From: Moorena sp. SIOASIH | Lineage (GTDB): Bacteria > Cyanobacteriota > Cyanobacteriia > Cyanobacteriales > Coleofasciculaceae | Length of the DNA: 64,000 nt | NCBI RefSeq assembly: GCF_010671925.1 | Contig: NZ_JAAHIH010000001.1 | Location: 805,053 to 869,052 of the forward strand | Reading direction: 5' to 3' | Shown here: piece by piece, positions 5,775 through 41,184 of the stretch | How positions within the stretch are numbered: the stretch's first letter is position 1 | How the letters are laid out: every line of letters begins with the position of its first letter | Translations under genes and position numbers: made by a program | Notes under the pieces: model-generated | Told to the model about the DNA's origin: nothing | Seen by the model: only the letters and a program-made list of their open reading frames with translations | Databases searched by the model: none

Positions 5775-8700
5775 ATGAGACTAACATTGAGCTGTCTTAA
5801 CCTGTTGACCAAGATCATCGGTAAGGGAAAATGGGCAGCAAGTAAGTTTTTCCTGCTTGTTTGTTCTTCAACCTATTTGACCTGTTGCCCGTTGCCAACC
5901 CCTGTGCAGGCGCAACCGATAGTTGAAGCCAACGATGGTACTGGTACTGTTGTCAACCCTGAGGGTAACCAATTCAACATTGATGGCGGTAAGCTGTCGG
6001 GAGATGGTGCGAATCTCTTTCACAGCTTCCAGAAATTTGGTCTGAGTGAAGGTCAGATTGCCAACTTTCTCTCTAATCCTAATATCGAAAATATCCTAGG
6101 GCGAGTCACTGGTGGTGATGCTTCTGTAATTAATGGCTTAATCCAGGTTACAGGGGGTAATTCCAATTTATTCCTGATCAACCCCGCCGGGATTGTCTTT
6201 GGTGCTGGTGCCAGCATCGATTTACCTGCTTCTTTTACCGCCACCACCGCTACTGGTATTGGTTTTGATGGCGAGTGGTTTAACGCCTTTGGTAGCAATG
6301 ACTATGCTTCTTTGGTAGGCAAGCCCAATACTTTTGATTTTGCTGTTTCCCAACCAGGTGGGATCATCAATTTAGCGGATTTAGCAGTTAAAGAGGGGCA
6401 GAATTTAACCTTAGTAGGTGGTACTGTGATCAGTAATGGCACTCTTACTGCCCCTGGTGGTCAAGTTACTATTGAGGCTGTGCCTGGAAAAAATTTACTC
6501 CGTATTTCCCAGCGAGGTAATATTCTGAGTTTAGAAGTTTCCCCCTCTGCCACTGTTCCCTTCACTCCCCTTTCCCTACCGGAACTGCTGACAGTTGGCG
6601 GCGGTGATGCTACAGCAATTGAGGTAAATCGTGATGGTACCGTACAACTGATCGGTTCTGGTATCCAGGTCGAAGATGGCGATGTGGTGGTGCAGGATAT
6701 CAGTGCTGGTCAGCAAGTAGTTATTGAAGCAGAAGGTAATATTCGGACAGCATCAATTACTTCCGATGGTGGAAGAATTTTCCTCAATAGTAGACAAGGA
6801 GAGATTGATACTAGTAGTGGCACACTGGATTCAACGGCGGTAAGTGGTGATAGTGGAAATATTGACCTGAAAGCAGAAGGTAATATCACTACCGGGAGTC
6901 TCAATGCTTCCAGTAATAATGGTAATGGTGGTGATATTACTGCTGTTAGCGATAGAGGAAGTATTGATACTAGTGCTGGGGTAGTTGATTCTTCCTCTGT
7001 GGAAGGTAAAGGAGGAGAGGTTCAATTATTCGCTACCGAGGGAAGTATTAATGCTGGTGATATAAATGCTGCTAGTAGTAATGGTGAGAGTGGCAATGTT
7101 ACTCTTGTTGCTGGTAGTGACATCAATACAGAAAATGTTACTGGTGGGGAGATTAGTATCATCAGTAGCACGGGTGCTGGAATAGATACTAGTGCTGGTA
7201 AGGAAAAAGATACTTCTACTATTACTTCCATTCTAGGTTTCGGAAAGCAGAATTTCACTACAACAAGTTCAGACTCTCTAGTCTCACAGCCACCTGAACC
7301 TCCACCTTTGGTGGCTATAGAGCCACCCACGATTGAACCTCCTTCAGTCATCGACCCAAAGCCATTACCACCGCTACCACCAGAACCACAGTTAGATAGT
7401 CAACCACTACCACCACCACAACCTCCAACAACAGTAATTCTTGAACCTGTAAATCCTGTAAATCCTTCAAATCCTTCCCCAACAACACCATCAGGAAGGT
7501 CAGACAATCAAAACTCTGCCTTGCCAACCCAGGTTAATCGATCAGATTTGGCGGTCAATCAGAGCAAGAGGTCAAACAAGACTCAAGCAATGGAACTAGA
7601 ACGACTGACAATCCTGGTACTGGAAATTCGAGAGTGTCTGGCAGAAGAACAATTACTCATAAATTCTCAAGGATTTTCATTACAAGTTGCTGCAAAAGAT
7701 TACAATAAAGCGGCCGAATGCTATCATAAAAACTTAGAATTTGCACGAAAATTTGGCGATAAATTGCGAGAAGCAAAAGCTTTACATAACCTCGGAGTAA
7801 CTCACTATATTTTGGGAGACTATGGCAAAGCTATAGACTATCATAAGCAGCATTTTAATCTTGCCCAATCAGACCCAAACTTAAGAAGAAAACCACAAGC
7901 TTTTAGTGGTTTAGGAGCCGCTTATGGCGCAATAGGAAACTATGACAAAGCTATTGAATACTATAAACAGGGTCTAGAACTAGTAAACTCAACCAATGAT
8001 TCTGAGATGGAAAGGAATATAGTAAGCAATCTCGGATTGGCTTACTACGCTAAGAAGCAATATACCAAAGCACTTGAATACAAAGAAAAAAGTTTAGCGA
8101 TCGCTAAAACATCCGATAACCTACCTGGAAAGGCAAGAGCATTATCTAATTTGAGCTTGCTGTACTATACCCTGACCAACTATAACCAAGCAATTGAATA
8201 CTCTCAGCAGAGTTTAGCGATCGCACAAAAACTGCAAGATAACTATGGAGAGTTAGTAGCCCTAGAAAATTTGGGAATAATTTACTATGCTCTAGAAGAC
8301 TACAACCAAGCAGTAAACTACCAACGCCAAAGTTTAAAAATTGCCAAGCAACTAGGTGATCGCCACGCCAAGGGACGAGCTTTAAGCAACTTAGGTGATG
8401 CTCTCTACAAAGCCGGAAATCCTCAAGAAGCAAATGAGGCTCTATTTGCTGCCATTGAAATTTGGGAGTCTTTGCGGTCAAACTTAGGCAGCAATGACCT
8501 TGAGAGAGTATCAATATTTGAAACTCATCAAACAACTTATAGCGCTTTACAAGAGTATTTAGTAGAACGAAAACAATTCAATCAAGCCCTAGAAATTACT
8601 GAAAGAGGAAGAGCAAGAGCTTTTGTTGAACTATTAGCAAGAGGTTTATCAGAGTCTGAACCAAACCTCAAAACTAATAAACCGATTGCCCCTCCGAACA

Positions 8701-9821
8701 TCAAACAAATTAAAAAAATTACCGAAGAACAAAACTCGACAATAGTTTTATACTCTCTTATCAAAGAAGTTGTCGAAGCCGAAGGTGTGCGGCAACTTCA
8801 AGACAAAGAGCTTTACATTTGGGTAATTAAACCTACAGGTAAAATCGCTTTTAGTCAGGTTAATTTAACTAATCTGGAGACATCTCTTGACAAATTGGTT
8901 CGTATCACTCGTAAATCGATTTTTTTCAGAAGAAGCCCAGCCCTAGTTGATTTAGTTCCCAGAGAAAGATTGACTAAAACAGAGAGAGCTGGTCAAACTG
9001 AACGATTAAAACAACTGCATCAACTGCTCATTGAACCAATTGCCGAACTCTTACCTACTAATCCGGAAGCTCGTGTTACCTTTATTCCCCACGAATCTTT
9101 GTTTCTAGTACCTTTCCCAGCACTACAAGACGCTTCTGGTCAATACCTGATCGAAAAACATACTATGCTCACTGCTCCCTCGATTCAGGTGCTGGATTTA
9201 ACTAACCAGCAACGGCAACTGGTTTCTGGAGAAGAGATGCTAGTAATTGGTAATCCCACTATGCCTCAAGGTTTGCCCCCTCTTCCTGGAACAGAAACAG
9301 AAGCGCTAGCGATCGCTGAGATGTTCAATACTCAAGCCCTGATTGGCAATCAAGCCACCAAGAAAGCAGTAGTTGAGCAAATGCCAAGGGCAAAGATCAT
9401 ACATCTAGCTACTCACGGCTTACTGAATGACTTCCAGAGATTAGGTTTACCAGGAGCGATCGCCCTTGCTCCGACTAAAACAGATAAAGGTTTTCTCAGC
9501 GCCAGTGAAATACTCGACTTCAAGCTTAGAGCTGAGTTAGTAGTTTTAAGCGCTTGCAACACTGGTAGCGGTAGAGTTACCAGTGATGGCGTGATTGGAT
9601 TATCCCGTTCTTTAGTTGCTGCTGGTGTACCCAGTGTGGTTGTTTCTCTCTGGAAAGTACCTGATGACTCCACAGCTGACCTGATGATTGAATTCTATCG
9701 CCAGCTACAACAAACACCTGACAAAGCAGTTGCTCTGCGTCAAGCCATGCTTACGACTCTTAAACAGTACCCAAATCCAGTGGAATGGGCGGCTTTTACC
9801 CTGATTGGGGAAGCGGAGTAA
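5775..9821 (+). CDS. Large secreted multidomain protein. It has a signal peptide, an N-terminal TPS/filamentous-haemagglutinin secretion domain, a beta-helix repeat region, a Pro-rich linker, about 12 TPR repeats, and a C-terminal CHAT (caspase-like) protease domain.
   Basis: N-terminal haemagglutination-activity-domain motifs ([12 protein letters not shown]...[14 protein letters not shown]...[30 protein letters not shown]). Repeated ~20-aa G-N-I beta-helix units. A PPEPPPL...PLPPPQPP linker. TPR consensus repeats (AxxxYxxAL..). A CHAT His/Cys dyad (HLATHG ... LSACNTGSG) at the C-terminus. Confidence 0.8.
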
Positions 9822-9890: not shown

Positions 9891-10388
9891 TTGCACAATA
9901 ATAAACCGATGAACACTGAGCTCCAATTTCCTTGGCAACAAGACCCAGTAATTCGCCAGAGCGAACGTCTAATCAATAGCTTTCATCATTGGACAGGGCG
10001 TTCTCTAATCGATACCAGTGGCTCACCTATCGAAATTGCACAGGCACTATTTGAAGCTCCCTTTGCCGTCCTCTCTCACAACACTGAATCAGACCCCATT
10101 TACAACTATGGCAATCGGAAAGCTTTGGAATTGTGGGAAATGGATTGGAACCAATTTACCCGAATGCCTTCGAAATATTCAGCTGAGCCGATGGAAAGGG
10201 AGGAGCGCTTACGCCTGCTTAACCAAGTGACAACCCAGGGCTATATTAGCAACTATCAAGGTGTCCGCATTTCTAGCACTGGTAAACGGTTCCAGATTTC
10301 AGATGTTATCGTCTGGAATCTCATTGATGAGGAAAATAAATATTGTGGTCAAGGGGCTACGTTTTCCCAGTGGATACCGATTAATTGA
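9891..10388 (+). CDS. Small PAS-like protein, possibly a MEKHLA-domain protein.
   Basis: 165 aa of the size and type of stand-alone cyanobacterial MEKHLA proteins. It contains a PMEREERL segment resembling the eponymous motif. I cannot confirm without a profile search. Confidence 0.4.
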   Translation: MHNNKPMNTELQFPWQQDPVIRQSERLINSFHHWTGRSLIDTSGSPIEIAQALFEAPFAVLSHNTESDPIYNYGNRKALELWEMDWNQFTRMPSKYSAEPMEREERLRLLNQVTTQGYISNYQGVRISSTGKRFQISDVIVWNLIDEENKYCGQGATFSQWIPIN

Positions 10389-10883: not shown

Positions 10884-13877
10884 ATGATTACAGCTCTAGG
10901 GTATTCCATCACTGAGTCAATCGAATCTGGCACTAGAACTGTACTTGGTATTGCCTATTGGTGGCATGATTTAGCCAAGTCTTACCTAAAGACCTTCCTC
11001 ATCTTGATCACTCATCAAACCGAAAGCCATATTGGGAATGAAAACTATGGAATAAAAACTATGATAAAAGCCAGGCTTGTCGGCAAAACTAGATTGCCCA
11101 AACCATTTGTTTGGACAGTCATTTTTATCTGCATTTTACCCTATCTTCTGCATCAATTAGGGGTTGATTTTAGTACCCATCAGGAACTGTTTGACCTCTC
11201 GGCAGCCTCTGAATGGGAACCCCATCAAATTAATGATGCCATGTACTCAGTCCTGTCCGGAAGTTTTGTACACACACTCCTGGAGTGGAGTGCTGTCTGT
11301 ACAGCGTTTTTTACGGTTTGCTTAGCCTTTACGAACTACAGCATCACTAAAGACCCAATCCTTCCTATCATCGGCGTATCACTTTTTTTTGCTGGTGTGA
11401 TGGATGCCTTTCATACTCTGGCTGCTGACCGCTTAATTGATGCTGTCGCCGATAATCGGAATTTAATTCCATTTACCTGGGCACTCTGTCGGCTTTTCAA
11501 TCCACTAATCCTGATTCTAGGAACTAGCCTTTTCTTAAGGAGAAGCTGGGTAGAAAAAAACCAAACCAGGAGCTTGGGTTTTGTCATTATTGTCAGCTTG
11601 GGGTTTGGGTTGATTGCCTATGGCATAATTCACATCTGTGCAACCAGCGAGATTCTACCGGAAACAACATTTCCCAACTCCATTATCACCCGACCATGGG
11701 ACATCCTGCCATTGCTTCTGTTTATTGCTGCTGGCATTTTTATTTACCCAAGCTTTCACCAACGGTATCCCAGTCTTGTCTCTTACTCCTTAATTGTGAG
11801 TACTATTCCCGATACAGTCGCCCAACTCCACATGGCTTTTGGTTCACAAGCACTGTTCGACAGTCATTTCCAAATCGCCCATTTCCTCAAAATTATTGCC
11901 CACCTTATTCCCCTAGTAGGATTAATACTAGAATCTCAGGGTACTTCTTGTACACTAGATCAGCTCAATAAACGTCTGATAGAAGAGATTGCTAAACAAC
12001 AACAAACAGAGGAAAAATTGCAAAGGTCAATCAAAGAATTATCAGATTTCAAGTATGCTTTAGCTCAAGGATCAATCCTAGCCATTACTGACCAAAAAGG
12101 GGTAATTACCGATGTCAATGAGCGGTTCTGTCAGCTCTCTCAATATTCTAGAGAAGAACTGATTGGACAAACCCATCTACTGATCAATTCCAATTACCAC
12201 CCCAAGGAATTCTTCCGAAACCTCTGGTCAATTATTGCCAGTGGTCAAGTTTGGCGGGGAGAAATTAAAAATAAAGCCAAAGATGGCACCTATTACTGGG
12301 TCGATACCACCATCTTACCTTTCTTGGATGATAGAGACAAACCTTACCAGTATTGGGCGATCAGAACCGATATTAGCGATCGCAAACAAGCTGAGGAAGA
12401 CCTAAAACAGGCAAAAGAAGCAGCAGTTCGCGCTGCGGCGCAAAGCGCAGTTGCCAACCGCGCCAAAAGCGAATTTCTCGCCAACATGAGCCATGAACTG
12501 CGCACCCCTCTCAATGGCATCCTCGGTTACACCCAAATCCTGAAACGCTCCAAAACCTTGACTCCTCAGTCTCTCAAGGGGATTGACATTATCCATCAAT
12601 GTGGTAATCATCTGCTCACCCTGATTAATGACATTTTAGACCTGTCCAAAATTGAAGCTGGTAAAATGGAACTCTACCAGACAGATTTTCATTTTCCGTC
12701 TTTTCTTCAGAACCTGATTGACATCTGCAAAATCCGAGTTCAAAACAAGGACATTTTGTTTACTTACCAACCCCTTTCTGAACTTCCCAACGGCATCCAT
12801 GCTGATCAAAAACGCCTGCGACAAGTGCTGATTAACTTACTGGGTAATGGGATTAAGTTTACTGACACTGGAGAAATTAAGTTTACAGTAAGTGTCCTTA
12901 AATCCAGGGAAAAGGAGAATGGACACATCAACAATAGCCAAGAACTGTTAACAACAATTCGATTTAAAATTGAAGACACCGGTATTGGCATGAGTCCGGA
13001 ACAAATCGAACGGATATTTTTGCCTTTTGAGCAGGTGGGGAATCCCTTAAATAAAGCACAAGGGACGGGATTGGGATTAGCCATTACTCAGAAACTGGTT
13101 CAGATGATGGGGTCTAAGTTAGAAGTAAGCAGCCAGTTGGGCATTGGCACTGTGTTTTGGTTCGATTTGCACTTAAAAGAAACCACAGCTGTATCCAAAC
13201 CCATGACTCCTAACACAGGGATTATTGGCTTCAAAGGTCAGCCACCCACAATTCTGGTGGTGGATGATAAGCAAGAAAATCGCTGGGTGATTGTCAATAT
13301 GCTGGCTCCCCTGGGATTTGAACTAGTGGAGGCTAGCAATGGTCAAGAGGCTTTAGAGGAAGCCACAGCATTTCCACCAGATCTGATTATCACTGACTTG
13401 TTGATGCCACAGATGGATGGCTTTGAGATGATCCGACAGTTACGACAATCCCCCCAATTGCACTCAAAAGTAGTGATTGCGTCTTCGGCTAGTGTATTTG
13501 ACACTGACAAGGAAAAAAGTAGTGAGGCTGGAGCGGATGATTTTCTGCCTAAACCAGTAGAGGCAGAAAAGCTACTAGAGATGTTACAAGTGCATCTGAA
13601 ACTGGAATGGATTTATCAAGCAAAGCAGGAAGGAGGAAGTAGAAAGAAGAAAAACATCTCATCTCAAACCATAGAGATTGTCCCTCCTCCAGTCGAGAAA
13701 CTTTCCCAACTTTACGATCTGGCTAGGGCAGGCTTAATCAATGACCTTTTAAAACAAATCGATAACCTAGAAAAATCCGATCCAAACACTATTGATTTTG
13801 TCCAACATATCCGTGAATTAGCTCAAAATTTTCAGTTGAAAAAAATTCGAGATTTTCTTAAAGACTATATTCAGTGA
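10884..13877 (+). CDS. Hybrid sensor histidine kinase. Order of domains: N-terminal multi-TM (MASE-like) membrane sensor, PAS, HisKA, HATPase_c, REC, then the conserved ~65-aa C-terminal tail. An alternative start is at 11061.
   Basis: [31 protein letters not shown]-box. N/G1/F/G2 boxes ([12 protein letters not shown]...DTGIGM...GTGLGLAI). A receiver domain (VVDDKQENR...[14 protein letters not shown]...KP). The tail EIVPPPVEKLSQLYDLARAGLINDLL...LKKIRDFLKDYIQ. Confidence 0.85.
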   Translation: MITALGYSITESIESGTRTVLGIAYWWHDLAKSYLKTFLILITHQTESHIGNENYGIKTMIKARLVGKTRLPKPFVWTVIFICILPYLLHQLGVDFSTHQELFDLSAASEWEPHQINDAMYSVLSGSFVHTLLEWSAVCTAFFTVCLAFTNYSITKDPILPIIGVSLFFAGVMDAFHTLAADRLIDAVADNRNLIPFTWALCRLFNPLILILGTSLFLRRSWVEKNQTRSLGFVIIVSLGFGLIAYGIIHICATSEILPETTFPNSIITRPWDILPLLLFIAAGIFIYPSFHQRYPSLVSYSLIVSTIPDTVAQLHMAFGSQALFDSHFQIAHFLKIIAHLIPLVGLILESQGTSCTLDQLNKRLIEEIAKQQQTEEKLQRSIKELSDFKYALAQGSILAITDQKGVITDVNERFCQLSQYSREELIGQTHLLINSNYHPKEFFRNLWSIIASGQVWRGEIKNKAKDGTYYWVDTTILPFLDDRDKPYQYWAIRTDISDRKQAEEDLKQAKEAAVRAAAQSAVANRAKSEFLANMSHELRTPLNGILGYTQILKRSKTLTPQSLKGIDIIHQCGNHLLTLINDILDLSKIEAGKMELYQTDFHFPSFLQNLIDICKIRVQNKDILFTYQPLSELPNGIHADQKRLRQVLINLLGNGIKFTDTGEIKFTVSVLKSREKENGHINNSQELLTTIRFKIEDTGIGMSPEQIERIFLPFEQVGNPLNKAQGTGLGLAITQKLVQMMGSKLEVSSQLGIGTVFWFDLHLKETTAVSKPMTPNTGIIGFKGQPPTILVVDDKQENRWVIVNMLAPLGFELVEASNGQEALEEATAFPPDLIITDLLMPQMDGFEMIRQLRQSPQLHSKVVIASSASVFDTDKEKSSEAGADDFLPKPVEAEKLLEMLQVHLKLEWIYQAKQEGGSRKKKNISSQTIEIVPPPVEKLSQLYDLARAGLINDLLKQIDNLEKSDPNTIDFVQHIRELAQNFQLKKIRDFLKDYIQ

Positions 13878-13995
13878 ATTCAGAAGATGCCTTTTTAATT
13901 TCATAACAAGTTATCTGTAGCATATTTTTTAGATTTCAGAGACTAATTACAAACAGTAAGCTTGATGCCATAAGTGACTAAACAAATAAAATTTT

Positions 13996-16215
13996 ATGAA
14001 TAAAAACAAACTAATTAAGACTCTACTAAATCTCCAAAAAACAGTCCATTCTCTGCCCCTAGCACTCACTATTTTTACAGGGGTTATGTTTTCCCTACTA
14101 ACGTTCATGGGAACTTGGAATTTGGAAAACAAAACCATCGAAAAAGAGTTTGAACAAGATGCAACCGATATTGTTTCCTTGCTCCAAAGAAGCCTTGACA
14201 AAAATCTACAACAACTGGAATCGATTGTTGGGGTCTATGCTGCCTCCGAAAAAGTGACTCGTCAGGAATTTCGGACGTTTGTCAAGCCTTACTTGTCAAA
14301 TCATTCAGATATTCAAGCCCTAGAGTGGATTCCTTGGGTACCCCATGAGCAACGAGCCGCTTACGAACAAGCTGCCAAACAGGAGGGTTTTCCTAACTTT
14401 AAAATTATAGAACAGAATCCTCAGGGAGAGCTGATTAAGGCTAAACCCAGAGAAGAGTATTTTCCTGTCTATTTTGTTGAGCCATACCACGATAATGAGA
14501 CAATGTTGGGTTTTGACCTAGCCTCGAATTCTGTCAGTTTGGAAGCTTTGCAATTATCACGAGATAGTGGCAAAGCGATCGCCACCCCACCCATGATATT
14601 AATGCATAAAAGCACCCAGCACCAACTAGGATTCCTAATTTTATGGCCAATTTATCGACAGAATACACCTACTAATTCAGTTATATCCCGTCGCCAAAAT
14701 CTGGAAGGTTTTGCCTCAAGTGCGTTTTTGATTGGAGACGTCGTAGATAGGGCTTTAGAGTATCTACAACCGAGGGGGATTGATGTTTACCTGTTTCACG
14801 AATCTGCGCCAACAGAGGAGCGATTGCTCTATACCTATTCATCTAGTACACCCAAAGCATCAAAGGACTTGAAGGAGGAAGACTTTGCTAGCCTCAGAAA
14901 TGGGTTACACCATACTGTAATTCTTGATGTCTCAGGACAGAAATGGTTGATTCTGTCTAAGCCCAATTCCGAATATATCGGGAGTCGAAGAACCTGGTAT
15001 CCCTGGACTGTTTCGTTGGGGGGACTATTACTTACCATATTGCTGGCTATCTATATTAGCGATCGCATCTCAGCAGTAGCAGCACTGCTCGAGAGTGAAA
15101 GACAGCTAGAACAGCGAGTTGAGCAACGGACAGTGGAACTCCATAAAGCCAAAGAAGCAGCAGTTCAAGCAGCAGTGCAAAGTGAAGCTGCCAACCGTGC
15201 TAAAAGTACATTTCTTGCCAACATCACCCACGAAGTCCGTACTCCCCTCAACGGTATTTTGGGTTACGCTCAAATCCTGAAACAATCAACTAACCTAACG
15301 GCTAGCGACAAGAAAGGTATTGATATTATCGAGCAGTGCGGCTCTAATCTGCTCAGCCTGATCAATGAGATTTTAGACCTCTGTACAATTGAAGCTGATA
15401 AATTAGAACTCCACTCCCAAACGGTTGATTTTGGTACCTTATTGAAGGACATCGTGGAAATTTGTCAGGTGAAAGCAGAACAAAAGGGTATTTCCTATAG
15501 TTACCAAGCAAATTCTCGACTACCTAGAGCAATTAATGTTGACGAAAAACGCTTGCGACAAGTGCTGATTAACTTACTCGACAATGGCATTAAATTTACT
15601 GAAACAGGGGGAGTAACCTTTAAGGTTAGTGTCCTTGAATCAAGGAAAAATGCCAAAAATGAAACAACAAATAAACTCCAACAGATTACCACTATTCGCT
15701 TTCAAGTAAAAGACACGGGTATTGGGATGAATAGCGAGCAATTATCTAAACTATTTTTGCCATTTGAAAAGCTAGATAACACCTCTGGTTATGTGGAAGG
15801 AACTGGACTGGGTTTAGCAATTACTCAGAAACTTGTCAAGATCATGGGTGGCGAGATTAATGTCGAGAGTAACCCAGGCCAAGGTAGTATTTTTACTATA
15901 GATTTAGACGTACAAACTTATCCAGAATCCGATCAAATCAAATTTACTAAAAATCAGCAAAAAATAGTTGATATTCAAGAACAAAATAATAACAGTATAT
16001 CAGTGAAAACAACAGAAATTGTTAGTCCTCCAAAAGAAAAACTAGTCTACCTCTACGATCTGGCTATGTCAGGCTTAATCAATGACCTTTTAGAGGAAGT
16101 CGATCAGCTAGAACAAAATGATGAGATATTTATACCATTTTCCCAAGCTATCCGTCAATTATCCGAAAAATTTCAAATTAAAAAAATTCGAGAATTCATC
16201 AAACAATACCTGTAA
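13996..16215 (+). CDS. Sensor histidine kinase with a periplasmic CHASE domain, HisKA and HATPase_c. It has no receiver domain but keeps the same conserved C-terminal tail.
   Basis: Signal/TM, then a CHASE-like periplasmic domain (...QEFRTFVKPYLSNHSDIQALEWIPWVPHEQRAAYE...), a second TM, the H-box [30 protein letters not shown], and an ATPase domain. The tail EIVSPPKEKLVYLYDLAMSGLINDLL...IKKIREFIKQYL directly follows the ATPase domain. Confidence 0.85.
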   Translation: MNKNKLIKTLLNLQKTVHSLPLALTIFTGVMFSLLTFMGTWNLENKTIEKEFEQDATDIVSLLQRSLDKNLQQLESIVGVYAASEKVTRQEFRTFVKPYLSNHSDIQALEWIPWVPHEQRAAYEQAAKQEGFPNFKIIEQNPQGELIKAKPREEYFPVYFVEPYHDNETMLGFDLASNSVSLEALQLSRDSGKAIATPPMILMHKSTQHQLGFLILWPIYRQNTPTNSVISRRQNLEGFASSAFLIGDVVDRALEYLQPRGIDVYLFHESAPTEERLLYTYSSSTPKASKDLKEEDFASLRNGLHHTVILDVSGQKWLILSKPNSEYIGSRRTWYPWTVSLGGLLLTILLAIYISDRISAVAALLESERQLEQRVEQRTVELHKAKEAAVQAAVQSEAANRAKSTFLANITHEVRTPLNGILGYAQILKQSTNLTASDKKGIDIIEQCGSNLLSLINEILDLCTIEADKLELHSQTVDFGTLLKDIVEICQVKAEQKGISYSYQANSRLPRAINVDEKRLRQVLINLLDNGIKFTETGGVTFKVSVLESRKNAKNETTNKLQQITTIRFQVKDTGIGMNSEQLSKLFLPFEKLDNTSGYVEGTGLGLAITQKLVKIMGGEINVESNPGQGSIFTIDLDVQTYPESDQIKFTKNQQKIVDIQEQNNNSISVKTTEIVSPPKEKLVYLYDLAMSGLINDLLEEVDQLEQNDEIFIPFSQAIRQLSEKFQIKKIREFIKQYL

Positions 16216-16244
16216 CGTAATGGATGCATCTCATATTTGTAAAA

Positions 16245-16312
16245 AAGAAGGGAAGTGTGGGGAGGGTGGGGAGATAGGGAGATGGGGAGATGGGGAGATG
16301 GGGGAGATTTTT
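16245..16312. repeat. GGGGAGAT-type short tandem repeats.
   Basis: Read directly. A similar array occurs at 29650-29690. Confidence 0.8.
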
Positions 16313-16597
16313 ATTAATGGTAATTGTTATAACATGATATTATGCTTCTATTTTTTTGAGTGTTTTTGCATGCATTTAGATGCACCATAAAGTAATTAGA
16401 TAAACCTGGTGAATAACACTATAAATGCCAAGTCAATGAAGCAAGGGAAATTGATAGCAGACTGAAACTGTTACTTGGGTAGCACTGGTTGGGAATTCTA
16501 TAATATAACTATTGTATTTACCACTTTATTTACAACTGTATGTACAACCCCACAATCATTAAATAATTCCCAATAGTTGATTGAGTGATAAAAGACA

Positions 16598-18964
16598 ATG
16601 GCTGCCTCTCCCTTGAGGAGGATATGGAGAAATGATATGACTAAATTAAAAACAGACTCAACCACCGAATCTTCATTGTCAAAGACGGTTTCAACCAACT
16701 CATCCCAACCTTTAACAGGTCCCCTTGTCTGGTTCAGAAAGCAGCTAAATCGCCTTAATATCAGTCAAAAGATTGCCTATGGGTATGGTATTGCCCTTGG
16801 GATTGCTGTTCTGGGAACAACAGTTGGACTCCTTATTGGCAATAACTACCAAAACTATGCCCAGAACTTAAGAGAAGATGCTTTAGAAGAAAGCGAGCTT
16901 CTCATGGAATTGCAACGTCACCTGCTGGAAATACAAATACACCATCAATACTTCGCTGTTTTGTTCCAGCAACCAGACATTTTTAAGGAAGAGTATTCTC
17001 GTTTTAAAAAGCATTCCCGATTAGCCCAGCAAAACTGGTTAGCATTAAAAGAATCTTACAAAAATCCAGAGGTGGATGAGGGATCAGAGGAAGTTGAACT
17101 TTTCAATAACCTTATCAAAAATTATGACAGCCTAATACAAGTATACACCCAACGGGTAGAGGCACTATTGCAGCCAATCGATCCGTCGAATTTGAAGCCA
17201 GAAGAAATCGAGACAGCCCACAAAAATTTTCTAGAGTTAAGCAAGAGTCATTTAGGGCTAAACCTCAGGAGTTTCGTCTATGATCTTGAGGAAATAATAG
17301 AGGAGGTTGAGGAGGAAAGACCACATGCCAAAGCTGTGCTAGATGCTTCTGAAAGGCTTCGGACTCGAATCATTTTGATAACCATGATCCTATCAATTTC
17401 AACCGCAGCCCTATTAGCCTTCTATACCAGTAAAACACTGTTAGCAGCTCAAGAAGTAGAAATCCAACGTCAACAGCTCCTGAGCCAAGAATTACAAGGG
17501 GCTAAAGAAACCGCTGAAATTGCCAACCGTGCTAAAAGTGAGTTCCTGGCCAATATGAGTCATGAACTGCGCACCCCCCTCAATGGCATCCTCGGCTATA
17601 CCCAAATCCTCCAACGCTCTAAAATCATGAGTCCTGAGGAACTCAAGGGCATCCGTGTCATCCACCAATGTGGCAACCACCTACTGACCTTGATTAACGA
17701 TATTTTAGACATTTCTAAAATCGAAGCCAGGAAAATGGAACTGTACCCAAGCAATTTTCATTTTCCCTCCTTTCTAGAAAATCTAGTTGATATCTGCCGT
17801 ATCCGCGCTGATCAGAAGGAAATTTCCTTTAGTTACCAACCCCAGAATCAACTCCCCAATCACATCCATGGCGATGAAAAACGCCTGCGACAAATACTAA
17901 TTAACTTACTGGGTAATGGGATTAAATTTACTGACACTGGAGCAGTCACTTTCAAGGTCAATGTCTTGGAATCAAAGCCCTTAACAACAAAGGAAGACAA
18001 AAAGCCAAACAACCATGGACTGATCAGAACAATTCGGTTTCAAATTGAAGACACCGGTATTGGTATGAGTCCGGAACACATCGAACGCATAGTGTTGCCC
18101 TTCGAGCAGGTGGGGAATCCCTTAAGTCGAGCCGAAGGCACCGGATTGGGATTAGCCATTACTCAGAAACTGCTTGAGATGATGGGGTCTACTTTGGAAG
18201 TGCAAAGCCAACTCGGTGTTGGCAGCGTATTTTGGTTCGATTTGGACTTGCCAGAAGCGACAGGGGTAACTGATGTGATTGTTCCTGATCAGACAATTAT
18301 TGGTTTCCAAGGCAAAGAGCGCAAAATTCTGGTGGTCGATGATAAACCAGAAAATCGCTGGGTACTGGTGAATCTGCTAGCTCCCCTTGGCTTTGAACTA
18401 AAAGAAGCGAGCCATGGTAAAGAAGGTTTAGAGAAAGCTAAACAGTTCCAACCAGATCTGATTATTACTGACTTGTTGATGCCACAGATGGATGGTTTTG
18501 AGATGATCCGACAGTTGCGAGAATCCTCCCAATTCTCATCAGTACCAGTGATCGCTTGTTCAGCCAGTGTGTTTGATGATCACCAGCATCACAGTATTGA
18601 GGCTGGAGCAGATGATTTTCTGCCCAAGCCAGTAGAGTCAAAAAAGCTATTAGAGACGTTACGGGAATATCTGAAACTAGAATGGGTTTATGAAGAAGAA
18701 GAAGATAAAGATACAAAGGTAAGCAGCAAGGCACCCTCCCCCCTCAAAACTGAAAACTCGATGGTGCCGCCCTCAAAAGAAGCACTAGACCACCTGTACG
18801 ATCTGGCGAAGACTGGCTTAATTAGCGAGATTTTAAAACAAGTGGAAATCCTGGAAAAATCTGATGATAAGTTAATCCCGTTCAGCCAACATCTCCGTCA
18901 ATTAGCCGAAGACTTTAACCTCAAGAAAATTCGACAGTTTATTCAGCAATATCGGGATAAATAA
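16598..18964 (+). CDS. Hybrid sensor histidine kinase: TM, a periplasmic four-helix-bundle sensor (CHASE3/4HB-like), TM, HisKA, HATPase_c, REC, and the conserved C-terminal tail.
   Basis: Two TM segments flank a ~200-aa helical periplasmic region. The transmitter, receiver and tail are about 95% identical to those of the 20697-23261 gene. Confidence 0.85.
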
Positions 18965-18976
18965 TAATTATAGCAA

Positions 18977-19347
18977 AGGGAGCAGGGAGTAGGGAGTAGG
19001 GAGTAGGGAGTCGGGAGTAGGTAGTATAGGTAATAAAATTGAATGTAGCTTATAAGTATAATAAACGCAATATTACAATTAACTATTACTAACCAATATA
19101 ACTATTTTTGGTTAGTAAATTTTAAATAACAAATAGTTTATTTTTAGATATTTAAGTAATAAAAAAAAATATTAAATATTATCATGAAATACTGCATCAA
19201 TACAGTGATAACAATCAATTTCAGTACTCAAAGAATGAAATATTATTACTGCTCCCTGCTCCCTGCTCCCTGCTCCCTGCTCCCTGCTCCCTGCTCCCTG
19301 CTCCCTGCTCCCTGCTCCCTGCTCCCTGCTCCCTGCTCCCTGCTCCC
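18977..19347. repeat. Inverted heptamer arrays, (GGGAGTA)n at 18977-19030 and (TGCTCCC)x~14 at 19250-19347, flanking a ~220-bp AT-rich core.
   Basis: Read directly. The two arrays are reverse-complement-related, so the region can fold as a long hairpin or cruciform. Confidence 0.85.
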
Positions 19348-19559
19348 TAAACTCCAATAATTTGTAACTCACCCAAGTAAAAACTGCTGTAATATAACCA
19401 ATGATATCCCATCGAAAAAGTGATGAAATAAACTAGAGATTAAGCTTAAACTGTTATTTTGGTAAGATTAGCTGGGAATTCTATAATATGATTATTGACT
19501 ATTGTGGAATCCCACAACTGTAAACCATTCGCAAGAGCTTATCTTAGTGATAAAAGACA

Positions 19560-19700
19560 ATGGCTGCATCTCTCTTGAGGAGGATATGAATAAATGATAT
19601 GACTAAGTTAAAAACAGACTCAACCACCGAATCTTGATTGTAAAAAACGGTTTCAACCAACTCATCCTAACCTTTAACAGGCTCCCTTGTCTGCTTCAGA
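19560..19700 (+). pseudogene. Degenerate duplicate of the promoter and 5' coding end of the kinase gene at 16598 (a remnant kinase start containing stop codons).
   Basis: 19455-19700 aligns at about 85% identity with 16480-16745 (..GATAAAAGACAATGGCTGC.TCTC.CTTGAGGAGGATATG..ATGATATGACTAA.TTAAAAACAGACTCAACCACCGAATCTT..). The reading frame is broken in the second copy. Confidence 0.55.
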
Positions 19701-19828
19701 AAGGGTCGTGTTGCACTTTTATGCGATTGACTCTAGCACTAGAACCTAAGTTGCTCAAGGCATGTCTGAGGCTGACCAAAAACCCGTGATTATCAAAGGT
19801 AAAATTAATAGTTTATTGGAGATGTCTA

Positions 19829-20689
19829 ATGAAGTTAAATAGCTGGTTCACCCTAGCTCTAGGGACGAGCCTAGCCATGTTGGTAAGCTGCACCCCCAAC
19901 ACCAACCAAGCCACCAATGTCCAACAAGCCCAGCAGGAAATCAAGATTACTGGGGCAGGGAGTCCCTATCCAGCAATGAAGGTATTAGCTACTGCCTATG
20001 AAGCCAAGACTGAAAACACAGTCATTACCTTTTTGCCAAAAAGTCAATCCCCTGGTGGAATCGCTGGCACTAAAGACAAATTGGTTGATATTGGTACTGT
20101 TACCAGGACTTTGAAACCAGAGGAGGATGATGGCTCTTTAGTATATCGGGAAATCGCCAAAGATGGTTTAGTAGTAGCAACTCACCCTAGTGTCGTAGGA
20201 GTAACCAATTTGCAAACCGAACAACTCAAGGCCATCTACAGCGGAAAGGTGACCAATTGGCAAAAGGTAGGGGGACCAGACGCAACAATTATCGTGCTGG
20301 ATCGACATGAAGATGAGTCAGCCAAGAAACTATTGCGGAAATACTATCTTGGATCAGACCTCAAGAATGCTCCAGAAGCAGTGATTTTGCGCCACGAAGC
20401 TGATTTAATTGCAGCGGTCCAGAGTACACCCTACAGCATCGGTGCTTTCTCCCTGGCCTATGCGATCGCTAATCAGCTACCTGTGAACCGCCTCAGTCTA
20501 GATGGCGTGGAACCCACCCCCGAAAACATTAAGTCAGGTAAATATAAAATGGCGCGTCGCCTTGGCATCGTCTACCGCCAGACCCCCTCAGATATCTCCC
20601 AAACCTTTATTGACTTCGCCTTTAGCAAAGAAGGAGGCAACCATCTGCTCGAATCAGGGTTCATACCATCTAGCCAGGAACAGGAGTAG
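19829..20689 (+). CDS. PstS-like (PBP superfamily, phosphate-binding-protein fold) periplasmic substrate-binding lipoprotein encoded immediately upstream of a hybrid kinase.
   Basis: Lipoprotein signal (LAMLVSC). Then [20 protein letters not shown]..., [16 protein letters not shown] and [12 protein letters not shown] motifs typical of PstS/PBP-like_2 proteins. Its stop is 8 nt before the kinase ATG at 20697. Confidence 0.75.
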
Positions 20690-20696
20690 TAGTGAC

Positions 20697-23261
20697 ATGT
20701 TCCGACAGATGTACTCGAAACTTTCCCTCAGAGCAAAAATACTATTGCCGATGCTCTTTGTGTTCCTGGGAATGTGGATAGTAGGAACCTTTAGTTTGGG
20801 CTATTTTTTCACTAAGCGTCTGGAACAGCAAGTGCAAGAGGAGATCGAGGACTTCTCATCCATACAATTGCATGCCTTTGAACAGGAAAAAGAAACTCTA
20901 TTTTTGAAAGCAAGGTGGATAGCTGACAGAGAGGATGTTTCCACATTAGTTGCAGCAGGGAACCGGCAAAAGCTGTTTCAGTATTTACTGCCGATACAGT
21001 TATCTTATCAGCTCGATCTGCTTAAACTCGTAGACAAGAACGGGTCTATATTGCTGGAACTGCGGCAGGCAGACCTTAACCAAGTTGAGCTACTCGACGA
21101 GACAGTCAACCAAGCGGCAAGCATTGGGATGGATTTGTTCGATTTCGTGCCAGCTGAAGACAATGCCCCATCGCTCCTAGTCGGTCTAACCTCGGTGAAG
21201 TCTGCCCAGGAAATCTTAGGGGGAATAATCGTTGGCATTACTATTAGCGATGAATGGCTCGAACAATTACGCCCCCATAGGCACCATCACCTCGTTACCT
21301 TCTATGATTCTCAGGTTACTGCCTCTACCTTAACCGATGCTAAAAATGCTCCTTGGCAGCCACCGCCAATCAAATCCCTACCAGTGCAGGTCACTATTGC
21401 CGAGAAAAACTACATTGCCAAAAGTGTAGAGATCACCGGGATCAATGGTAAGGGGGGCAAACTGGTTTTACTGTACTCCGCCGCACCTCTTGAGCAGGTG
21501 CAGGGAAAGTTGTGGTTCAGTATCAGTGCTTTGTGCTTGCTGGGGTCAGCAATTACCACCGTAGTTGCCAACAGGGTCACTTTCTTGATTACCCGTAACA
21601 TTCAACAAGTAACAGAGGTAGCCCAGCGCGTCACTCAAGATGATAATTTTACTCTACAAGCCCCGATCATATCCCAAGATGAAATAGGAGTCTTAGCCAC
21701 TTCTCTGAATCATCTTATTCAACAAGTAAAGCATCTTTTGGCATCCAAAGAAGCAGAAGTCCAACGTCAACAGCTCCTCAGCCAAGAATTACAAGCAGCT
21801 AAAGAAACCGCTGAAATTGCCAACCGTGCCAAAAGTGAGTTCCTGGCCAATATGAGTCATGAACTGCGCACTCCCCTCAATGGCATCCTCGGCTATACCC
21901 AAATCCTCCAACGCTCTAAAATCATGAGCCCTGAAGAACTCAAGGGCATCCGTGTCATCCACCAATGTGGCAACCACCTACTCACCCTGATTAACGATAT
22001 TTTAGACATTTCTAAAATCGAGGCTAAGAAAATGGAACTGTACCCAACCAATTTTCATTTTCCCTCCTTTTTAGAAAATCTAGTTGACATCTGCCGTATC
22101 CGCGCTGATCACAAAGATATTGTATTTATTTACCAACCCCAAAATCAACTCCCCAATCACATCCATGGCGATGAAAAACGCCTGCGACAAATACTAATTA
22201 ACTTACTGGGTAATGGGATTAAGTTTACTGACACTGGGACAGTGACTTTCAAGGTAAATGTCTTAGAGTCAAAGCCCTTAACAAAAGGAGAAGACAAAAA
22301 ACAAAACAACCATGGAATTTTGAGAACAATTCGGTTTCAAATTGAAGACACCGGTATTGGTATGAGTGCAGAACACATCGAACGCATAGTGTTGCCCTTT
22401 GAGCAGGTGGGGAATCCCTTAAGTCGAGCCGAAGGCACCGGATTAGGATTAGCCATTACTCAGAAACTGCTTGAAATGATGGGGTCTACTTTGGAAGTGC
22501 AAAGCCAGCTCGGTGTGGGCAGTTTATTTTGGTTCGATTTGAAGTTGCCAGAAGCCACAGAAGTAACTGATGCGATCGCTCCTAACAAGACAATTATTGG
22601 TTTCCTTGGCCAAGGCCGCAAAATTCTGGTGGTGGATGATAAACCGGAAAATCGCTGGGTACTGGTGAATCTGCTAGCTCCCCTTGGCTTTGAACTCGAA
22701 GAAGCGAGCCATGGTCAAGAGGGTTTACAGAAAGCCACACAGTTCCAACCGGATCTGATTATTACTGACTTGTTGATGCCACAGATGGATGGTTTTGAGA
22801 TGATCCGACAGTTGCGAGAATCCTCCCAATTCTCATCAGTATTAGTGATCGCTTGTTCAGCCAGTGTGTTTGATGATCACCAGCACCAAAGTAGTGAGGC
22901 TGGAGCAGATGATTTTTTGCCCAAGCCAGTAGAGTCAAAAAAGCTATTAGAGAAGTTACAGGTAAATCTGAAACTAGAATGGGTTTATGAAGAAGAAGAA
23001 GATAAAGATAAAAACCTCACGACCAAGGCACCATCCCCTCTCAAAACTGAAAAGTCGATGGTGCCGCCCTCAAAAGAAGCACTAGACCACCTGTACGATC
23101 TGGCGAAGACTGGCTTAATTAGCGAGATTTTAAAACAAGTGGAAATCCTGGAAAAATCTGATGATAAGTTAATCCCGTTCAGCCAACATCTCCGTCAATT
23201 AGCCGAAGACTTTAAACTCAAGAAAATTCGACAGTTTATTCAGCAATATCGGGATAAATAA
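20697..23261 (+). CDS. Hybrid sensor histidine kinase: TM, a periplasmic Cache-like sensor, TM, HAMP, HisKA, HATPase_c, REC, and the conserved C-terminal tail. The track ORF 20502-23261 overlaps the upstream gene; the likely start is the ATG at 20697.
   Basis: [31 protein letters not shown]1, a ~280-aa periplasmic domain, TM2, a HAMP-like segment, then a transmitter-REC-tail near-identical to the 16598 gene. Confidence 0.85.
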
Positions 23262-23273
23262 TAATTATAGCAA

Positions 23274-23853
23274 AGGGAGCAGGCAGTAGGGAGTAGGGAG
23301 TAGGGAGTAGGGAGTAGGGAGTAGGGAGTAGGGAGTAGGGAGTAGGGAGTAGGGAGTAGGGAACAGGGAACAGGAAAGTGGGAAAAGGGAAAAAATATTG
23401 TTTACCTCATTAGGCTATAAAAAGCTATAAATTCAAAAAATTTATTTATTCATAAATAAATAAATAAAACCAGGCATAAAACTCTATATTGTGTATAGCA
23501 ATCCGTGTAGGAATTGTGAGAATTTTTGTTCCCTACTCCCGTCTTGATGCAGTCGCTCATGGGGGAAACCACGGCAGTCGCTGGGGGAACGGCAGTCGCT
23601 CATGGGGGAGACCACGGCAGACCGCGAGTGGGGGAAACCACGGCAGACCGCGAGTGGGGGGAACCCCCAAGACCGCACTGCCTCCCCAAGACCGCGCTGC
23701 CTCCCCAAGACCGCGCTGCCTCCCCAAGACCGCGCTGCCTCCCCAAGACCGCGCTGCCTCCCCAAGACCGCGCTGCATCGCTACTCCCTACTCCCTACTC
23801 CCTACTCCCTGCTCCCTGTTCCCTGTTCCCTGTTCCCTGTTCCCTGTTCCCTT
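23274..23853. repeat. Complex intergenic repeat island. It contains (GGGAGTA)x~12 at 23274-23376, GC-rich ~29-nt repeats at 23556-23664, a 19-nt unit CCCCAAGACCGCGCTGCCT x6 at 23665-23778, and an inverted (TACTCCC)x3-(CTGTTCC)x6 array at 23779-23853.
   Basis: Read directly. The ORFs predicted on both strands here are repeat translations. Confidence 0.9.
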
Positions 23854-24033
23854 TGCTATAGGATTGATTCATAACTAATCCTACAGGTATATAGTTGCGG
23901 CAGAAGTACTGAATATTATCTTAAAAAAAATCCTACTACAGTTTTTTGTGTAATTAAAGGGAACAATTAAAGGGAAACAGTGAACATAATACTTTTGAAA
24001 AAGTAGCAAAAAATCAACTAGTTAATCGGAGCA

Positions 24034-29730: not shown

Positions 29731-30150
29731 ATGAATTCAATGAGGAAACTAGTCATGTCTGACGCCGTAATTTTATGTGTTGATGATGAAATATCGATCT
29801 TGAAAAGCTTGGAGATGGAACTTCAAGCAGCTTTTGAAGATAAGTATCTCTATGAATTTGCTGAAAGTGCTGATGAAGCCTTGGAAATCATTGATGAACT
29901 CTATGATAATGGAGAGCAAATTCTAATTATTGTCTCCGATTGGTTAATGCCAGGAATGAAAGGGGATCAATTTCTGATTAATGTCCATCACAAATATCCC
30001 GATATTATTAAAGTGATGCTAACGGGACAAGCTGATGACGAAGCGGTTGAACGGGCGCAACAATATGCTAACCTATATCGATGTTTACACAAACCCTGGA
30101 ATACTCAGGAATTAATTTTAACAATTCAGTCTGCTTTAGTCGAATTATGA
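29731..30150 (+). CDS. Single-domain response regulator (receiver only). Its stop overlaps the start of the next gene (ATGA).
   Basis: VILCVDDE...IIVSDWLMPGMKGD...KP receiver motifs. 139 aa. Confidence 0.8.
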   Translation: MNSMRKLVMSDAVILCVDDEISILKSLEMELQAAFEDKYLYEFAESADEALEIIDELYDNGEQILIIVSDWLMPGMKGDQFLINVHHKYPDIIKVMLTGQADDEAVERAQQYANLYRCLHKPWNTQELILTIQSALVEL

Positions 30151-41156: not shown

Positions 41157-41184
41157 GAATATCCGAGTTCATAACTTATTTAAT

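Follow-up and report, generated by a model that had tools for sequence, protein, structure and literature searches.

The window analysed here, a whole stretch of 64,000 nucleotides from Moorena sp. SIOASIH, encodes an array of five paralogous sensor kinases that carry different sensor domains and end in a common tail. What is this tail, and which regulator could it serve? Hybrid histidine kinases are very numerous in filamentous cyanobacteria, and Hpt domains are detected there only rarely (PMC9953108). In Leptolyngbya JSC-1, 49 hybrid kinases and one unorthodox kinase are found together with no stand-alone Hpt protein (PMC9953108).

The five kinases and their tails

Translation of the open reading frames and alignment show that five of five sensor kinases in the window share the C-terminal tail, with lengths of 66–69 amino acids. 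The alignment is without internal gaps and contains 24 invariant columns, and the other local copies are 46–59% identical to the tail of the first kinase, K1. The initial annotation had placed the kinase ends at 13877, 16215, 18964, 23261 and 27426, in full agreement with the open reading frames. Its module size of about 65 residues also holds. Its start at 13650 does not, as the conserved part opens only at about 13668 with T-I-E-I-V-P-P-P.

10884–27426, + strand: kinase array of five paralogues with different sensor domains and a common transmitter-plus-tail module (ORFs, Pfam, alignment)
13668–13877, + strand: K1 tail; gene 10884–13877, MASE3-PAS-HisKA-HATPase-REC-tail; His975 codon at 13806–13808
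16009–16215, + strand: K2 tail; gene 13996–16215, CHASE-HisKA-HATPase-tail, no REC; Ala718 at the His position
18755–18964, + strand: K3 tail; gene 16598–18964, TM-HisKA-HATPase-REC-tail
23052–23261, + strand: K4 tail; ORF 20502–23261, dCache/HAMP-HisKA-HATPase-REC-tail
27220–27426, + strand: K5 tail; gene 24034–27426, sensor-PAS-PAS-HisKA-HATPase-REC-tail

The true start of K4 is probably the ATG at 20697, behind a PBP-like gene (19829–20689) that sits inside the kinase array.

Pfam assigns HisKA, HATPase_c and Response_reg to K1, K3, K4 and K5, and the internal RECs retain the DD, D, S and K residues. For the CHASE kinase K2, only HisKA and HATPase_c are detected, the latter extending to residue 640 and the tail beginning at residue 672. 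Comparison of the K2 and K1 DNA yields two matching blocks, the kinase core and the tail, with a receiver-sized deletion in between. Pfam and the gap-free alignment thus bear out that the tail is common to all five kinases and is kept by the one without a receiver. The best NCBIfam models for the kinases are TorS, BarA, ArcB and LuxQ, all under their equivalog cut-offs, and the alignments stop short of the Hpt of these proteins. Judged by domain content, K1, K3, K4 and K5 are hybrid histidine kinases with a TorS/BarA/ArcB-like transmitter, and K2 is a kinase of this kind that lacks the REC. The tail is joined to the kinase by a low-complexity linker of 20–30 residues, and its conservation is similar to that of the kinase core.

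A C-terminal domain and its relation to Hpt

An exhaustive HMMER profile search of 1.84 billion proteins, a check of the kind proposed with the initial annotation, retrieves 2,026 cluster representatives with the tail at E ≤ 1e-3, and 239 pass the stricter limit of E ≤ 1e-10. A word-index protein search with the tail profile yields no more than a few fragments. With these numbers of profile matches, the similarity is far beyond chance, and the tail is widespread and not a local feature. Its members come mainly from filamentous cyanobacteria, and at least one belongs to Rhizobiaceae. Among the best 150 representatives, the tail is nearly always located at the extreme C-terminus after HisKA-HATPase-REC; about ten families in this set lack the REC, and thirteen carry tandem tails. 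Survival of REC loss in K2 and in these other families, together with the tandem copies, sustains the earlier view of an independent module that is not an appendage of the REC. Pfam gives no match to the five local tails even at E up to 10, NCBIfam holds no model for the tail, and the sequences in the PDB give no match, so that, as initially noted, no named domain can be assigned. We conclude that a distinct domain of about 65 residues, as yet without a name, forms the C-terminal end of a large TorS/BarA-like transmitter family with the architecture HisKA-HATPase-[REC]-tail. Stand-alone tail proteins were considered and rejected: the short P0078 and P0159 are parts of HK-REC-tail genes broken by frameshifts in fragmented assemblies. 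Next downstream of these frameshifted genes, a REC-HK is again encoded.

Across 100 diverse tails, columns P7, L15, G22, F44 and F55 are at least 90% conserved, and the strongly conserved polar columns include E35, D38 and R49; together with D17 and Q50 these make up a conserved polar face. The histidine that recalls Hpt is not among them. Residue by residue, the local copies are as first described, with His in four of five (H975 in K1, H765 in K3, H896 in K4, H1109 in K5) and Ala718 at the same position of K2. Over 172 family members, however, this column contains E in 42, K in 42, Q in 38, H in only 26 and R in 10 cases, and P0005, the closest representative with the K5 architecture, has Glu. 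No other column of the 172 tails holds a conserved His, and the H-x-x-K-G motif is absent. Column 32, with Asp or Glu in 97 of 172 tails, and column 46/47 are the candidates for the position that corresponds to the Hpt histidine. Neither the five local tails nor any of the 100 diverse tails match the Hpt profile PF01627 at E up to 10. A profile alignment of the tail with five E. coli Hpt domains by hhalign scores 13.0; column-shuffled controls score 9.6 ± 2.0, and 2 of 60 of them equal or exceed the real value. For lack of a conserved His and of a profile match we reject a canonical Hpt, a label that the initial annotation had already withheld from the Q-H-(I/L)-R context.

Two AlphaFold models of the tail predict four helices. 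The predicted helicity agrees with the first description; the size comparison with half an Hpt is somewhat off, since a complete small four-helix bundle is predicted. The predicted bundle is closed and monomeric and not an open hairpin, and its stand-alone fold is predicted with confidence. In structure, the predicted tail comes closest to the RcsD Hpt. Short four-helix bundles such as FliS, which have no contextual or functional link to the tail, also match, and the fold match is not unique to Hpt. The Hpt domains (PF01627) of ArcB, BarA, TorS, EvgS, RcsD and Anabaena CdgK are located, like the tail, C-terminally after the REC of a TorS/BarA-type transmitter, and an all-helical up-down bundle like theirs is predicted for the tail. 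With about 85–120 residues, Hpt is longer than the tail of about 65, and unlike Hpt the tail has no conserved histidine, no H-x-x-K-G motif and no detectable profile similarity, and persists in kinases without a REC as phosphate donor.

The receiver gene downstream

For the comparison of gene neighbourhoods, other genomes were scanned with ten consensus-like tails as queries, and the 80 resulting genome loci contained 82 tail-bearing kinases with enough downstream DNA. For 80 of these 82, the next gene lies on the same strand and encodes a REC-first protein, often with overlapping stop and start codons. REC-HisKA-HATPase proteins account for 71 of the downstream genes and other REC-first proteins for nine, those of the nine scanned with Pfam being REC-GGDEF or REC-(GAF)-PAS-cyclase. 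The sample is phylogenetically redundant, with about 42 of 79 kinases in two groups; counted by distinct kinase groups, 20 of 22 show the pairing. All 80 RECs encoded downstream share 60–74% identity with the REC of the window gene 27740–29230, but only 25–40% with the internal RECs of the kinases. The outputs attached to this partner-type REC vary and include kinase, GGDEF, cyclase and LuxR.

The reciprocal direction was followed in metagenomic RECs with at least about 870 nt of upstream DNA. Of 13 RECs with 60% or more identity to the partner type, 10 have a tail immediately upstream; one of these ten kinases has no REC. Three partner-type RECs with 62–65% identity have no kinase upstream. 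Four more cases with an upstream tail occur at 55–59% REC identity, and none below 55%. Partner-like RECs of 48–55% identity follow HK-REC-REC-Hpt kinases that match PF01627 clearly. Relatives of the partner RECs are thus served by Hpt-bearing kinases, and the tail fills the slot of the Hpt in these related systems. A by-eye likeness of the tail to the extension of about 95 residues that follows the Hpt in these kinases was discarded, as HMM comparison finds none and hhalign scores 12.0 versus 23.6 for the reversed control.

The tail therefore co-occurs strictly with one receiver subfamily, in 80 of 82 cases forward and 10 of 13 in reverse. The REC-less metagenomic kinases L089, L109 and L117 keep the tail and have the partner REC directly downstream. 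Plasmid cases obey the same rule, with a partner REC-HK in Calothrix and a partner REC-LuxR in Peteryoungia. In L013, a REC-HK-REC-tail protein lies between the tail kinase and another partner-type REC. Tandem tails show no correlation with two partner regulators. Co-occurrence does not by itself single out the tail, because the whole transmitter is coinherited, including the DHp, the usual setter of partner specificity.

Downstream of the kinase array, the window contains the following two features.

27740–29230, + strand: REC-HisKA-HATPase, putative common partner of the five kinases; REC at 27767–28105 with Asp58, of the subfamily that trails tail kinases elsewhere
29731–31985, + strand: possible next tier, a REC (29731–30150) overlapping a REC-PAS-HisKA-HATPase gene (30081–31985); RECs not of the partner subfamily

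The gene 27740–29230 directly follows K5. The initial annotation had suggested that the tail may bind a partner, which the comparative evidence favours, and had named the stand-alone regulators at 2265 and 29731, which are both outside the co-occurring subfamily. The REC at 2265 is 27–35% identical to this subfamily and not a member, and the REC at 29731 gives no BLAST alignment of at least 90 residues to it.

Possible roles of the tail

We favour, tentatively and at slightly less than an even chance, an explanation in which the His-less, Hpt-like tail engages the downstream regulator, and the five local sensors converge on one REC-kinase. The tail is inherited with a downstream gene whose product opens with a specific PleD-like receiver, and would act as a His-less Hpt-like adaptor for this receiver. 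It may hold the receiver at the kinase for phosphorylation, most simply directly from the DHp histidine, with the kinase's own REC as a side branch or sink. Such recruitment would provide specificity in genomes crowded with paralogous kinases. For the window, five sensors with different inputs would feed the single REC-kinase 27740–29230, which could pass the signal to a second tier. The domain, its distribution, its predicted fold, the variable His and the gene pairing are observed; receiver binding and this phosphotransfer route are inferred. That the tail is in addition derived from Hpt by loss of the His, and is still needed for signalling from the hybrid kinase to the next receiver, is possible but doubtful.

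The position of the tail after the REC, with a response-regulator gene next, would also fit a shortened working Hpt. In the His-bearing K1, K3, K4 and K5, phosphate would then pass from DHp-His to REC-Asp to tail-His to the Asp of the partner REC, as in ArcB or CdgK. The local distribution of the residue, with Ala in the REC-less copy, agrees with such a relay, as do the His in the Peteryoungia tail and, among the best representatives, a His in 21 of 102 REC-preceded versus 0 of 12 REC-less tails. This last association is not significant, however (Fisher p = 0.12), and we did not retain it. The composition of the His column is the pattern of a variable surface position, down to the Glu of P0005; the motif and any alternative conserved His are missing, and profile similarity to Hpt is nil. 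REC-less kinases retain both tail and partner REC, which excludes a relay via the tail as the general mechanism. We regard a working Hpt as improbable. A functionless remnant of an Hpt would likewise account for fold, position and lost His, and is more improbable still: the five nearly invariant columns, the conserved E35, D38 and R49, and retention in 2,026 clusters and after REC loss indicate purifying selection and not decay.

Two further explanations place the target of the tail elsewhere. The tail could be an intramolecular element that packs on its own DHp/CA or REC and tunes autokinase or phosphatase activity, with no contact to the downstream regulator. It is always fused to this transmitter family and conserved to a similar degree as the kinase core, and coinheritance of the whole transmitter could account for the gene pairing. 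On the other hand, the tail outlasts the internal REC, which thus is not its obligatory target. Its duplication in tandem and a stand-alone fold that is predicted with confidence suggest an autonomous domain on a 20–30 residue linker, and the tail vanishes at just the point where the partner REC becomes divergent and a canonical Hpt appears instead. We consider this explanation unlikely. Gathering of paralogous kinases, five in this case, in one complex or at one cellular site by an oligomerisation or scaffold-binding tail would explain its presence on five adjacent kinases that differ in their sensors. Contacts of this type are often made by small helical bundles, and several tail kinases can occur per genome, with at least four in one Symplocastrum assembly. 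Most loci, however, contain a single tail kinase, the partner REC gene is the only conserved neighbour, with no sign of a conserved scaffold gene nearby, and the predicted bundle is closed. We give this explanation as little credit as the working Hpt.

A receiver-engaging tail has counterparts in well-known proteins. Pseudo-Hpt proteins such as Arabidopsis AHP6 have an Hpt-like fold without the phospho-accepting His and are thought to bind receivers and not to carry phosphate. AHP6 is a stand-alone inhibitor and plainly homologous to Hpt in sequence, whereas the tail is fused to a kinase and its Hpt homology is not demonstrable. CheA P2, one of the regulator-docking modules of kinases, is an accessory domain that concentrates the cognate receiver locally by binding it while itself remaining unphosphorylated, which is the role proposed for the tail. 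Its alpha/beta fold and its location between P1 and the dimerisation domain set it apart, and it has no sequence or fold relation to the tail. Hpt kinases resemble tail kinases in having the cognate response-regulator gene directly downstream. CdgK/CdgS of Anabaena is the characterised Hpt-bearing analogue (PMC9927289); CdgK is not a characterised example of the tail, as it has a normal Hpt with His1757.

With about 2,000 protein clusters, the tail domain identifies one large class of hybrid kinases, and this class is tied to one receiver subfamily with interchangeable outputs: a second kinase, a cyclase for c-di-GMP or cyclic nucleotides, or a DNA-binding domain of the LuxR type. Tail and partner REC together provide a rule for partner prediction in these genomes. 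If the tail is such an Hpt-derived adaptor, hybrid kinases would be wired to their regulators without a phosphorylatable Hpt on a wide scale, which would help to explain the dozens of hybrid kinases in cyanobacterial genomes that have almost no recognisable Hpt. Descent from Hpt with loss of the His would also make the tail a clear example, from bacteria, of the conversion of a phosphorelay domain to a docking module. Its small size allows deletion or exchange of the tail as a test of whether it sets specificity. The window would offer a concrete many-to-one circuit, with five sensors feeding one REC-kinase. A similar layout is known from Hik16-Hik41-Rre17 of Synechocystis, where a sensor kinase signals to a receiver-first second kinase and further to a regulator, a pathway deduced from the transcriptomes of mutants rather than from an analysis of domains (PMC3264485); it mirrors the proposed path from K1–K5 to 27740–29230.

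Conserved C-terminal tail of five sensor kinases

Five sensor kinases are encoded on one strand of the window (ORF calls), with the following Pfam domain orders:

K1, 10884-13877: MASE3-PAS-HisKA-HATPase_c-REC
K2, 13996-16215: CHASE-HisKA-HATPase_c, no REC
K3, 16598-18964: TM-HisKA-HATPase_c-REC
K4, 20502-23261: dCache/HAMP-HisKA-HATPase_c-REC
K5, 24034-27426: sensor-PAS-PAS-HisKA-HATPase_c-REC

In each kinase, the last Pfam domain is followed by a low-complexity linker of 20-30 residues and then by a conserved tail, the copies ending at 13877, 16215, 18964, 23261 and 27426. The tails comprise 66-69 residues, align without internal gaps and share 24 invariant columns; the other four are 46-59% identical to that of K1. 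ORF calls, Pfam and alignment confirm the initial annotation, which described this tail on all five kinases including the receiver-less CHASE kinase K2. Its end positions stand, and the start of the K1 copy is corrected, as the conserved block begins near 13668 and not at 13650. In K2, the domain before the tail is the ATPase domain, with HATPase_c finishing at residue 640 and the tail beginning at 672. Compared as DNA, K2 aligns to K1 over the kinase core and again over the tail, with a receiver-sized gap in between. From this match, K2 looks like a former HK-REC-tail gene whose REC was lost while the tail remained.

K3 and K4 are 93% identical at the DNA level over 1,602 bp (17426-19026 versus 21722-23323). 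This block comprises the entire transmitter, REC and tail and extends about 60 bp beyond the stop codons, whereas the sensor halves are unrelated; the other kinase pairs share 66-75% DNA identity. The pattern points to duplication or gene conversion that was recent and limited to the output half. Directly upstream of K4 and overlapping its longest ORF lies a gene for a periplasmic PBP_like_2 protein (phosphate/phosphonate-binding-like, 19829-20689); the true start of K4 is probably the ATG at 20697. Since a tail kinase on a Calothrix plasmid (L169, 2044-5240) shows the same binding-protein-plus-kinase layout, the binding protein may be the ligand-delivery partner of the sensor.

Relation of the tail to Hpt and other known domains

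No Pfam family matches the five window tails at E up to 10, nor any of 100 diverse tails scanned singly at the same threshold; the histidine phosphotransfer domain Hpt (PF01627) was never hit. NCBIfam likewise lacks a model for the tail. The models that score best on the whole kinases are TorS, BarA, ArcB and LuxQ; all fall under their cut-offs, and their alignments stop before reaching the Hpt that these proteins carry. With the tail as query, profile searches of PDB sequences returned noise only.

AlphaFold2 predicts one compact arrangement of four helices (residues 9-20/21, 24-37, 39-53 and 57-68) from both a 6-sequence and a 100-sequence alignment, with mean pLDDT of 88.1 and 85.5, respectively. 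Foldseek found no PDB match to the predicted tail below E = 1. In hhalign comparisons with the Hpt domains of E. coli ArcB, BarA, EvgS, TorS and RcsD (from NC_000913), the tail profile could not be distinguished from column-shuffled controls. The tail is Hpt-like in predicted shape; the resemblance is weak, and these comparisons gave no signal of homology to Hpt.

The initial annotation had noted a candidate His in four copies and Ala in the CHASE copy, and considered the name Hpt unjustified. K1, K3, K4 and K5 indeed carry His and K2 Ala, and the caution is borne out by the missing PF01627 match and by His in only 26 of 172 aligned tails. The other residues in this column are mainly Glu (42), Lys (42) and Gln (38), besides Arg (10) and Ala (4), and none of the remaining columns contains a conserved His. 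P0005, the best-scoring cluster representative with the K5 architecture, has Glu at this position. Of 102 tails after a REC, 21 have His, and of 12 directly after the ATPase domain, none has it; this difference is not significant (Fisher p = 0.12). Given the variable column, phosphotransfer via this residue is unlikely as a family-wide function. The conserved columns are largely hydrophobic core plus turn residues: P7, L15, G22, F44 and F55 reach 90% conservation or more, and strong conservation is also seen at L18, A19, L34, L51, A52 and I60. Conserved polar residues are E10, D17, E35, D38, R49 and Q50.

Two defining features of the Hpt family were tested and neither was found, and we therefore do not place the tail in this family. 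It occupies the position of the Hpt of related systems and has an Hpt-like predicted fold, but unlike Hpt it lacks the conserved His and is kept where the internal REC is lost. We conclude that this tail is a genuine accessory domain of two-component kinases, strongly conserved and at present without a name, and that it follows a clear partner rule.

Distribution of the tail and its downstream receiver gene

The tail is not restricted to the window locus. When the tail profile was run exhaustively with HMMER against 1.84 billion cluster representatives, 2,026 matched at E<=1e-3, 239 of them also at E<=1e-10. HMMs built from the window's own kinase core, REC and tail served to type the best 150. 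Among these, nearly every full-length protein has the order [variable sensor]-HisKA-HATPase-REC-tail, the tail forming the extreme C-terminus; in about ten the REC is missing (HisKA-HATPase-tail), thirteen carry a tandem pair of tails, and short matches are fragments. Two long-contig candidates for stand-alone tail genes proved to be pieces of frameshifted HK-REC-tail genes.

A genome scan, whose pattern favours consensus-like tails, gave 80 loci, with few exceptions from cyanobacteria: Coleofasciculaceae, Nostoc, Microcoleus, Symplocastrum, Allocoleopsis, Leptolyngbyaceae and Chroococcales. The exceptions are a few MAGs recorded as 'uncultured bacterium' and a single MAG with the label Actinomycetota; the gene layout of the latter is of the Microcoleus/Kamptonema type. 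A plasmid search added Calothrix and the alphaproteobacterium Peteryoungia desertarenae, the latter a clear member (28.7 bits against the 100-sequence profile). By this membership, the family is mainly, not exclusively, cyanobacterial. Two metagenomic HK-REC kinases, each followed by a partner-like REC (50% and 57% identity), have ends of about 90 residues (L133, 4276-4536; L115, 5300-5581) that match the tail profile only weakly, at 15 and 5-7 bits. These ends may be divergent members bridging to non-cyanobacterial lineages.

ORFs in the 80 loci were typed with the same kinase-core, REC and tail HMMs, and 82 tail-bearing kinases had downstream DNA of 1.2 kb or more. For 80 of these 82 the next gene is a same-strand REC-first gene, often at a gap of 0 or -3 nt. 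Of the two exceptions, one is separated from a REC gene by a second tail kinase, and one has nothing downstream. Two orthologue groups dominate this sample; the rule holds for 20 of 22 kinase groups set at 60% identity. REC-HisKA-HATPase proteins account for 71 of the downstream genes. The other 9 are further REC-first genes, REC-GGDEF or REC-(GAF)-PAS-adenylate/guanylate cyclase where Pfam-scanned. All 80 RECs are 60-74% identical to the REC (27767-28105) of 27740-29230, the REC-HisKA-HATPase gene after K5, versus only 25-40% to the internal RECs of the kinases. The remaining RECs above 65% identity in these loci likewise lie downstream of tail kinases. By sequence identity, the downstream RECs are a single subfamily. 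The plasmid kinases obey the rule: that of Calothrix overlaps a REC-HK gene, and that of Peteryoungia a REC-LuxR gene whose REC has the partner signatures MMPG(I/L)DGFETCR and PVIFMT.

Reciprocally, metagenomes were scanned with the partner-REC profile. Among RECs of 60% identity or higher for which about 870 nt or more of upstream DNA is available, 10 of 13 have a tail directly upstream, one of these tails being on a REC-less kinase. Four more cases, two on REC-less kinases, were found at 55-59%, and none below 55%. For three partner-type RECs, no kinase is encoded upstream. Seven partner-like RECs (48-55%) instead follow HK-REC-REC kinases with a canonical Hpt (PF01627, E 1e-9 to 1e-13), an architecture characterised for CdgK/CdgS of Anabaena (PMC9927289). 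HK-REC-REC-Hpt kinases of this kind carry a further helical extension of about 95 residues beyond the Hpt, with a recurring motif (F/Y)(D/Q)(F/Y)xxAxxxL and no Pfam match, at these metagenome loci:

L129, 2150-2824
L120, 5298-5981
L137, 5138-5809
L153, 2811-3617
L146, 3555-4262

It resembles the tail by eye, and profile tests gave noise level.

Proposed circuit and neighbouring genes

The tail is part of a cassette with the layout [any sensor]-HisKA-HATPase-[REC]-tail and then [partner REC]-[any output]. The whole transmitter is inherited together with the tail, and this co-inheritance could also explain the partner pairing. As REC-less kinases cannot relay, their partner REC would have to be phosphorylated directly from the DHp histidine. 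In the simplest model for all members, for which we infer binding and transfer route, the tail would engage the partner REC for docking and specificity, and the internal REC, where present, would be a side branch. In the window, five differently gated sensors would converge on Asp58 of the REC-kinase 27740-29230, which has no tail itself and precedes RECs of a different type (29731-30150 and 30081-31985). For a kinase that acts on a regulator through a REC-kinase, a published precedent, alike in circuit layout, is Synechocystis Hik16-Hik41-Rre17 (PMC3264485). The window ORFs scanned, up to 45.4 kb, include no Hpt gene. The tail bears on the cyanobacterial mismatch between many hybrid kinases and few Hpt domains (PMC9953108). 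At locus L013 (5259-12076), an HK-REC-tail kinase precedes a REC-HK-REC-tail protein that starts with a partner-type REC, and a further partner-type REC gene comes third; this order suggests that tail-mediated steps can be chained.

The RECs at 2265 and 29731, initially proposed as partners, fall outside the co-occurring subfamily, as does that of 30081-31985. The single-domain REC ORF 29731-30150 overlaps the start of 30081-31985 (REC-PAS-HisKA-HATPase) by 70 nt in a different frame; two genes or a wrongly assigned start may explain the overlap. Immediately upstream of K1 and on the same strand, 9891-10388 encodes a 165-residue MEKHLA-domain protein (E 1.5e-59) that may be part of the signalling cluster. 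In the 1,348-residue protein of 5775-9821, a TPS (two-partner-secretion) domain at the N-terminus and a CHAT protease-like domain at the C-terminus occur together with TPR repeats. At 42516-44030 on the minus strand, a reverse transcriptase/maturase of the group II intron type that has an HNH domain adjoins genes for a RuBisCO-like protein and ARD (40599-42270), which are probably methionine-salvage genes.
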